Sequence record: X15717.1
Strand: one strand, 5' to 3'
DNA length: 421 nt
DNA from: a phage
Below, piece by piece: positions 23 to 421 of the stretch. Position numbers and translations under genes: made by a program. The notes beneath the pieces were generated by a model. The model was not told where the DNA came from and ran no database searches. It was given only the letters and a program-made list of their open reading frames with translations. Within the stretch, counting starts at the first letter, position 1, and each line of letters begins with the position of its first letter.

Positions 23-47
23 AAGGCTGCCGCACTCCCGGTTAGAT

Positions 48-69
48 GCCTGCCCAGTGTAGGGCAGAC
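48..69 (+). repeat. Inverted repeat / hairpin I (6-bp stem CTGCCC/GGGCAG, 6-nt loop AGTGTA)
   Basis: Bases 50-55 (ctgccc) are the exact reverse complement of 62-67 (gggcag). One further G48:C69 pair is possible across a C49/A68 mismatch. No U-tract follows. Confidence 0.6.
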
Positions 70-81
70 CGAGCCGACCCG

Positions 82-99
82 ATAAACTAGATAAACTAG
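82..99 (+). repeat. Perfect tandem direct repeat, 2 x 9 bp (ATAAACTAG ATAAACTAG)
   Basis: Positions 82-90 and 91-99 are identical (ataaactag), seen directly in the sequence. Each unit ends in the palindromic tetranucleotide CTAG. Confidence 0.9.
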
Positions 100-105
100 G
101 AACGT

Positions 106-126
106 GGAAGGCGTTAGCCGCCTTCC
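106..126 (+). repeat. Inverted repeat / hairpin II (perfect 8-bp stem GGAAGGCG/CGCCTTCC, 5-nt loop TTAGC)
   Basis: Bases 106-113 (ggaaggcg) are the exact reverse complement of 119-126 (cgccttcc), giving 6 G:C and 2 A:T pairs. The hairpin is followed 3 nt later by CTG at 130-132 and has no downstream U-tract. Confidence 0.7.
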
Positions 127-143
127 CTCCTGCTAAGCCCAAA

Positions 144-149
144 AAGGAG
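144..149 (+). promoter_or_regulatory. Shine-Dalgarno ribosome-binding site for gene H (AAGGAG)
   Basis: AAGGAG at 144-149 lies 8 nt upstream of the ATG at 158, which is canonical spacing, and sits within an A-rich context (aaaaaggag). Confidence 0.75.
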
Positions 150-157
150 TTACAGCG

Positions 158-421
158 ATGTTAGGTGCCGTTGTTGGTGGCATTGCCTCAGCCTTAGCTA
201 GTGGTGCCGCTTCGAAATTATTTGGAGGCTCTCAGCGTGGAGTTTCTGTTATGCAGCAAGGTGCCGAGTCTGCCGGATTGACTAACGGCGGCGGCGCCAT
301 TTCTATGGATAATGACCAAGGTATTCAGTCTGCTATTCAAGGCTCGAATGTTCCTCCTGCTGGTCAGCTTCCTGAGTCTCAGAACTCTGGTGTTATGGCT
401 GATGCTGGTAACATGCTTCGT
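158..421 (+). CDS. H: DNA pilot protein / minor spike protein H, N-terminal 88 codons (3'-partial, runs off window end)
   Basis: ATG at 158 with a Shine-Dalgarno site upstream, and an open frame for 88 codons to the window end. Translation: MLGAVVGGIASALASGAASKLFGGSQRGVSVMQQGAESAGLTNGGGAISMDNDQGIQSAIQGSNVPPAGQLPESQNSGVMADAGNMLR. The N-terminus aligns closely with phiX174 H as I recall it (MFGAIAGGIASALAGGAMSKLFGG... and the ...SAIQGSNVP... block). Third codon positions are strongly T-biased, as is typical of phiX-like phages. The other two + frames are closed by multiple stops. Confidence 0.93.
   Translation, partial: MLGAVVGGIASALASGAASKLFGGSQRGVSVMQQGAESAGLTNGGGAISMDNDQGIQSAIQGSNVPPAGQLPESQNSGVMADAGNMLR

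Follow-up and report, generated by a model that had tools for sequence, protein, structure and literature searches.

The question raised by this locus is what function is served by a stretch of 135 nt that separates genes G and H of a microvirus and in which a scan of both strands detected no open reading frame of at least 20 aa. The analysed DNA of 421 nt (hereafter the window) is 98.3% identical over its full length to four records of Escherichia phage alpha3 (Alphatrevirus, Bullavirinae, Microviridae), and its source, preliminarily described as an alpha3-like microvirus, can thus be narrowed to alpha3 itself. At its left end the window contains the 3' end of the major spike protein gene G (positions 1-22, + strand, ...VLQPLK, stop codon TAA at 20-22), as indicated by the alpha3 CDS annotation and by translation. 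At its right end it contains the 5' part of gene H (158-421, + strand, 88 codons), encoding the minor spike or DNA pilot protein, in a form identical to that of alpha3; translation from the ATG at 158 starts with MLGAVVGGIASALASGAASKLFGG. A search with this 88-aa N-terminus as a protein query yielded a single 69-aa fragment of 71% identity. In the annotation of DQ085810.2, the last base of gene G corresponds to window position 22 and the first base of gene H to window position 158, and the resulting 135-nt spacer (23-157) has exactly the limits assigned to it in the preliminary description. The Shine-Dalgarno sequence AAGGAG of gene H is situated in the spacer at 144-149 (+ strand) and corresponds to the ribosome-binding site annotated at 194-199 in M25640.

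The annotated gap between genes F and G of alpha3 comprises just 34 nt. The tiny size of the phiX174 G-H gap, to which the spacer had been contrasted, was confirmed by annotation (8 nt; G end at 2922, H start at 2931), and in G4 genes G and H are separated by 10 nt. The description of the spacer as GC-rich applies only in the sense of a mild excess, as its GC content is 57% vs. 50% in the remainder of the window.

Results of our analysis indicate that the region 23-157 of the viral (+) strand is very probably the complementary-strand (minus-strand) origin, oric, of alpha3, namely, an element of the G4 kind placed between G and H. This assignment is based on homology, on a covariance model, and on conservation. 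A sensitive BLAST search with 23-157 as a query returned 31 phage records, all of which represent Alphatrevirus or the G4 group, and which include the known origins of these phages. In Alphatrevirus (St-1, phiK, WA13, and others) the matched sequences are 86-95% identical to the query and are invariably located between G and H, in accordance with the location of the alpha3, St-1, and phiK origins given in the preliminary description. The matches in the G4-group phages ID52, NC6, and Shigella phage vB_1081 are of 77% identity. In the case of ID52 and NC6, the annotation of both of which was checked, the matched stretch sits between F and G. In the multiple alignment, G4 could be aligned over the entire element. 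Megablast of the window against 72,556 plasmid records, which detects only sequences of about 85% identity or more, gave no match.

Comparison of 12 whole Alphatrevirus genomes, alpha3 itself excluded, with alpha3 gave an identity of 94-98.5% for the spacer, while the flanking genes of the same genomes are less similar to their alpha3 counterparts (70-91% in the case of G and 83-92% in the case of H). Since the spacer is non-coding and yet better conserved than the adjoining genes, it is under strong purifying selection. When 20 relatives, without the window, were used to build a covariance model of the element, this model matched each of 13 whole Alphatrevirus genomes exactly once, always in the G-H spacer. 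Two doubts had been raised earlier, namely, that the spacer might resemble no known origin or that the genome might carry a G4-type origin in its F-G spacer; the homology to G4 and Alphatrevirus removes the first, and the single match per genome, between G and H, removes the second. The score of the window (153.1 bits) lies between the ranges of the two groups, as alpha3 scored 171.6, other Alphatrevirus copies 161.8-174, and the G4 group 127-131 bits; it is 8.7-21 bits under every other Alphatrevirus copy and the lowest in the genus set.

The suggestion that the spacer is rich in secondary structure was borne out by folding. The minimum free energy of the spacer as single-stranded DNA is -23.3 kcal/mol, as compared with -16.5 +/- 2.6 kcal/mol for dinucleotide shuffles (z = -2.6; 2/200 shuffles fold as well). 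In the 5' to 3' direction of the viral strand, the elements are arranged in the order: stem-loop III, middle block, hairpin I, and CTG.

Stem-loop III (25-70, + strand) was delimited by covariation. Its core is formed by G25-C31 paired with G63-C70, with A68 bulged and a loop of 31 nt. In the covariation set of 18 sequences, 99% of the alignment cells of this stem are paired, and two of its pairs have changed in a compensatory manner: T28-A66 is present in 5 sequences vs. C-G in 13, and G29-C65 is replaced by A-T in Lilleven and NC28, which belong to different subgroups, judging by their aligned H-leader sequences. When stem III and hairpin I are considered together, 99.6% of cells are paired in the 18 sequences, with 3 compensatory pairs, and the covariation score was reached by 0/500 column shuffles. 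In a control in which the partners were slid by 1-3 columns, pairing fell to 34-57%.

Energy folding with DNA parameters gives the long stem III as the minimum-energy structure of NC3, NC28, ID52, and G4. For the window and for alpha3 its energy exceeds the minimum by 3.1 kcal/mol, and its probability in naked-DNA folding of the window is P = 0.03. In both of these sequences the minimum-energy fold of naked DNA contains a local hairpin, CTGCCC-AGTGTA-GGGCAG (50-67, + strand; arms 50-55 and 62-67; P = 0.92), the formation of which excludes stem III. Across the relatives, the local hairpin has changed only on one side of its pairs, to G.T, and shows zero compensatory changes. The comparison of the aligned sequences supports the view that the conserved structure is the long-range stem 25-31/63-70 and not the energetically preferred hairpin 50-67. 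Of the two hairpins proposed in the preliminary description, the one at 106-126 is conserved, while the one at 50-67 is indeed a minimum-energy structure but not the conserved one. Covariation support was found neither for the inner extension of stem III (32-36/56-60) nor for a small hairpin II of the wild-type sequence (CGG-AGATAC-CCG). The support by compensatory changes that the 20 relatives now provide for stem III and hairpin I is a small contribution of our analysis that has some value.

Hairpin I (106-126, + strand) is a perfect inverted repeat, with an 8-bp stem formed by GGAAGGCG (106-113) and CGCCTTCC (119-126) and with the loop TTAGC. In the single-stranded DNA of the window it is paired with a probability of 0.99. 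It is 100% paired in the 20 relatives, in which one compensatory change was found, of the pair A109-T123 to C-G in the G4 group. Inside it, at 111-118, is the mini-hairpin motif GCGTTAGC. The motif GCGNNAGC or GCGNAGC is retained in 21/21 sequences, and the loop varies solely at the N positions. According to a 2026 review, St-1 and alpha3 contain Hairpin I with an 8-bp stem and with GCGTTAGC at the priming site of primase, the corresponding motif of G4 is GCGAAAGC, and SSB has been proposed to turn hairpin I into a mini-hairpin which SSB itself binds poorly (PMC13037366).

The triplet 5'-CTG-3' at 130-132, located 3 nt past the hairpin I stem, is invariant in all relatives, and its spacing in G4 is alike, as illustrated by the junctions CGTCC-CTA-CTG in G4 vs. 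CCTTCC-CTC-CTG in the window. In the naked-DNA fold of the window it is partly paired with the Shine-Dalgarno sequence of gene H. The RefSeq record of G4 contains, in the F-G spacer, the features "RNA primer of replication" (3970-3997) and "origin of compl. strand synthesis" (3998). By alignment, G4 positions 3970-3997 correspond to window positions 104-131, and G4 position 3998 corresponds to 132. The G4 annotation mapped in this way predicts a primer template at 104-131 and, together with the initiation triplet, a priming region at 104-132 (+ strand). The predicted primer, 5'-AGGAGGGAAGGCGGCUAACGCCUUCCAC, would have its first base templated by T131, and its 5' end, expected opposite this residue, would read AGGAGGGAAGG... 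The counterpart primer of G4, as deduced from the annotation, is AGUAGGGACGGCGGCUUUCGCCGUCCAU.

Priming in G4 requires no proteins other than SSB and primase, and the CTG with its initiating thymine is located 3' of three stem-loops, which create SSB-free regions and so enable the binding of two primase molecules; the primer reaches up to 28 nt, and DNA polymerase III holoenzyme then completes the strand (PMC6783573). All the tested defining sequence features of G4/alpha3-type origins were found in the window save the conserved middle block. From the homology to G4 we infer that priming takes place at 23-157 and depends on DnaG and SSB. In such a scheme, the viral single-stranded DNA would be coated with host SSB upon its entry into the cell, while the stable stem-loops of the origin would remain folded and set the phase of the SSB. 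The SSB-origin complex would then be bound by DnaG primase of the host, without other primosome proteins, and RNA priming would begin at the CTG (130-132) that follows hairpin I at a distance of 3 nt on its 3' side, with T131 as the first template base. The primase would copy leftwards through hairpin I to about window position 104, and the elongation of the primer by DNA polymerase III holoenzyme would yield the double-stranded replicative form.

The identity of the spacer as an origin is already known, as sequences of these origins were published in 1978-79 and that of the alpha3 genome in 1992, and the expectation that the locus represents known biology rather than a new system proved right. 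By its title, the paper of Sims, Capon and Dressler of 1979 (J Biol Chem 254:12615), which is cited in the 2026 review (PMC13037366) for Hairpin I and belongs to the 1979 literature invoked in the preliminary description, reportedly concerns the dnaG-dependent origins of St-1, phiK, and alpha3, and the paper of Kodaira et al. of 1992 is said to deal with the alpha3 genome. The roles of stem-loops I-III were reportedly addressed in the mutational work of Hiasa, Sakai, Komano and Godson, and minus-origin mutants of these phages are said to have been described by Kodaira, Godson and Taketo (1995). The primase-only origin of the G4/alpha3 type is still a standard in vitro substrate for DnaG and SSB. 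With respect to the replication of these phages, our assignment is a re-identification of a textbook element and adds nothing to what is known of it.

What distinguishes the window from all other copies is the block at 77-98 (+ strand), as revealed by alignment with alpha3 and the 20 relatives, by Tandem Repeats Finder, and by folding. All 7 mismatches to alpha3 fall in 77-89, and the remaining 408 positions are identical. The 9-nt sequence TACGGAGAT is missing, with the deletion junction between G76 and A77, and the 9-nt sequence GATAAACTA is tandemly duplicated (81-89 and 90-98). Thus, alpha3 reads GCCG TACGGAGAT ACCC GATAAACTA GGAACG, and the window reads GCCG ACCC GATAAACTA GATAAACTA GGAACG. 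The deletion and the duplication account for all differences, with zero substitutions needed. The same change can equivalently be described as the replacement of a 13-nt block (77-89) by the sequence located 9 nt downstream. It had escaped attention in the preliminary description. As a way in which it could have arisen, a single template switch is conceivable, with 13 nt copied in the +9 register before a return to the original one and with extension of a mismatched end (ACTA against ACCC). The recently published alpha3-like phage vB_SEC_3 (PX907427) is about 95% identical to alpha3 (PMC13029530). It is unlikely to be the phage of the window, as the window agrees with alpha3 at 408/408 positions outside the altered block.

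The missing TACGGAGAT is retained in 20/20 relatives (17 of Alphatrevirus and 3 of the G4 group, including three IMG/VR genomes), and of its nine columns eight are invariant and the ninth is altered only in WA45. The window does not conform to the middle block consensus, GCC(G)TACGGAGATAC(C/T)CGA, which in G4 includes the 5' arm of stem-loop II. The duplication, in turn, sits in the sole stretch of the alignment in which the two genera differ. As 9 nt were lost and 9 nt gained, the length of the spacer is unchanged. The nearly constant distance from stem III to hairpin I (C70 to G106) is likewise kept, as it is 35 nt in the window, in alpha3, and in other Alphatrevirus phages, vs. 33 nt in the G4 group. 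As concerns local structure, a weak hairpin of the wild-type sequence, CGG/CCG (-1.5 kcal/mol, P of about 0.55), has been lost, and a weak hairpin CTAG-ATAAA-CTAG (87-90/96-99, -1.7 kcal/mol, P of about 0.8), situated 8-9 nt nearer hairpin I, has been gained.

The rearranged allele was not found in INPHARED phages, IMG/VR, JGI metagenomes, GTDB genomes, PLSDB, or E. coli genomes, which were searched with exact junction patterns (IMG/VR, JGI metagenomes, and GTDB) or by megablast of the window (E. coli genomes and plasmids). Fourteen 20-mer matches in JGI metagenomes and GTDB were recognized by their flanks and by BLAST as unrelated, AT-rich chance matches. A preprint on the generative design of phiX174-like genomes showed no link to the window sequence.

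Two explanations of this allele deserve consideration, both of which leave the identity of the spacer as the alpha3 origin unaffected. According to the first one, to which we assign a chance not far short of even, the window contains the alpha3 origin in a defective or unnatural copy, resulting from a laboratory or engineered mutation, from a sequence or assembly artefact, or from editing of the sequence. An origin of this kind would be weakened, and priming would fall back on less efficient routes. The clustering of 7/7 differences within 77-89 in an otherwise identical sequence is in favor of this explanation, and so are the absence of the allele from all the above collections and the nature of the deleted 9-mer, the eight invariant columns and one near-invariant column of which are kept by 20 relatives that are up to 30% apart in gene G. 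The lack of TACGGAGAT, taken together with the lowest covariance-model score among the Alphatrevirus copies, indicates that the window copy may be impaired. What does not fit a damaged copy is the precise length neutrality of the change, which leaves stem III, hairpin I, CTG, and the 35-nt spacing intact, and its restriction, as far as the duplication is concerned, to a stretch that varies between the genera anyway. The exchange of one weak hairpin (-1.5 kcal/mol) for another (-1.7 kcal/mol) is likewise what would be expected under selection for a working origin.

The length neutrality and the substitute hairpin give some room to the second explanation, which we regard as rather doubtful but worth stating: the allele would be real and viable, and the loss of TACGGAGAT, the 9-mer most strongly conserved in the element, would be compensated by the 9-nt duplication, which restores the 35-nt distance and provides a substitute mini-hairpin. 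If so, what primase and SSB recognize in the middle part of the origin would be its geometry, that is, the spacing and the presence of any small hairpin, rather than its sequence, and the window would be a natural case of length compensation in a single-strand origin. If derived from a viable phage, it could be used as it is to test whether the invariant middle block matters by its sequence or only by spacing and structure. A functional compensated variant would be of moderate interest for the recognition of single-strand origins by primase and SSB.

Whichever of these applies to the middle block, the assignment of the spacer as a complementary-strand origin must also be weighed against a role exerted chiefly at the RNA level, with the origin function secondary. 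Hairpin I could act as a terminator or 3' stabiliser for G, and the pairing of CTCCT with AGGAG could limit the synthesis of the low-copy H. We consider this improbable as the main role of the spacer. The region 100-175 folded as RNA does form hairpin I and a helix in which the Shine-Dalgarno sequence is occluded (-24.2 kcal/mol), and the CTCCT (127-131) with AGGAG (145-149) pairing is predicted in DNA as well (P of about 0.6). However, the RNA fold z-score is just -1.75, and a scan for promoters and terminators found nothing; hairpin I is followed by CTCCTGCTAAGCCC, with no T-run of an intrinsic terminator. The search of Rfam gave nothing but chance-level matches under the gathering scores, and no match to an RNA family. 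Moreover, the conservation reaches as far as stem III, which lies some 100 nt before the Shine-Dalgarno sequence, and the gene that follows the element in the G4 group is another one (G), with a different downstream sequence. The presence of the same element before a different gene indicates that its conservation is tied to the origin rather than to the leader of H. An RNA-level role is possible as a side function of the spacer. That the spacer is instead a primosome site of the phiX174 type, recognized by PriA (n' protein), or an origin at which RNA polymerase makes the primer, as in M13, can practically be dismissed, for although these are likewise hairpin-rich non-coding stretches of phage single-stranded DNA with the same purpose, and the F-G spacer of phiX174 has 110 nt, the distant BLAST matches of the spacer belong solely to Alphatrevirus and the G4 group and include none of phiX174-like phages, the covariance model gives no match in phiX174 900-3000 with its F-G spacer, and the window can be aligned base for base with the primase start site of G4, including CTG and hairpin I.

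The position of the alpha3 origin of the window among known systems is best seen by comparison with its closest relatives. With the origins of alpha3, St-1, and phiK it represents the same locus, as it has in common with them the position between G and H, hairpin I with GCGTTAGC, CTG, and stem III; these origins differ from it by being free of the TACGGAGAT deletion and the GATAAACTA tandem duplication, which were found only in the window. The G4 origin (G4oric) is similar to it in sequence (about 77% identity), in the order of parts, and in the 3-nt gap between hairpin I and CTG, but is located between F and G, whereas the element of the window is located between G and H. Folding of G4 gives a clean set of three stem-loops. 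Its stem-loop II is stable (6 bp, CGGAGA/TCTCCG), that of alpha3 is reduced to 3 bp (CGG/CCG), and the window has neither of them and contains the 4-bp CTAG hairpin instead. The motif in the hairpin I loop is GCGAAAGC in G4 vs. GCGTTAGC in the window. The primosome assembly site (PriA/n') of phiX174 performs the same task, namely, the priming of complementary-strand synthesis on SSB-coated DNA, and also occupies a non-coding spacer between late genes. However, this F-G site has no sequence similarity to the window by either BLAST or the covariance model, and it requires a multi-protein primosome rather than primase alone. The G4-type ssi signals of plasmids, which are folded regions of single-stranded DNA that let DnaG prime in the presence of SSB, would act in the same manner as the origin described here.

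The difference between the G-H spacer of the analyzed record and that of phage alpha3 concerns the middle of the complementary-strand origin. At window positions 77-98, the near-invariant 9-mer TACGGAGAT is missing and GATAAACTA is present as a tandem duplicate, which distinguishes this block, as aligned, from the corresponding region of alpha3 and of all the relatives examined (20/20; 17 Alphatrevirus and three G4-group phages). The net length change associated with this rearrangement is exactly zero, and the remaining part of the window is identical to the alpha3 sequence. The rearranged allele had no match in any of the public collections searched.

The CTCCT sequence (127-131), which overlaps the predicted primer start CTG (130-132), is complementary to the Shine-Dalgarno sequence AGGAG of gene H (145-149). 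The pairing of these two elements is predicted in the DNA fold with a probability of about 0.6, and likewise in the RNA fold. Such pairing might damp the translation of H, a low-copy protein, or couple it to the origin structure.

Gene H itself contains an imperfect direct repeat, CAAGGTGCCGAGTCTGC (257-273) and CAAGGTATTCAGTCTGC (317-333), spaced by 60 nt, which encodes a recurring Q-G-x-x-S-A peptide motif within the N-terminal portion of this pilot protein. A search of a large protein collection with the H N-terminus (window 158-421) as a query returned a single match, a 69-aa fragment of 71% identity, and neither alpha3 H nor any of its many relatives. According to the annotation of the circular alpha3 genome (Acc. 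No. DQ085810.2), H ends at position 6089 and A starts at position 760, outside the window; the H-to-A stretch of about 760 nt without an annotated gene is far longer than the G-H spacer.

Two adjacent pairs of the long-range stem III (window 25-70) differ in state between the phages. According to alignments A2 and A4, T28-A66 is shared by alpha3, the related sequence L019, and the WA13/ID32/WA45 group, and is absent from L023, St-1, and phiK, whose G genes resemble that of alpha3 more closely. The A-T state of the adjacent pair occurs in Lilleven and NC28, which represent separate subgroups. This pattern suggests either double changes that occurred more than once or recombination inside the spacer.

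The loop of hairpin I (window 111-118 and the aligned columns in L001, which is alpha3, to L019, L023, and L030) differs between the 21 sequences compared, with the variants TT, CA, TA, AA, and a single T. All of this variation falls on the N positions of GCGNNAGC / GCGNAGC, the 'mini-hairpin' motif, which suggests selection on the motif itself.
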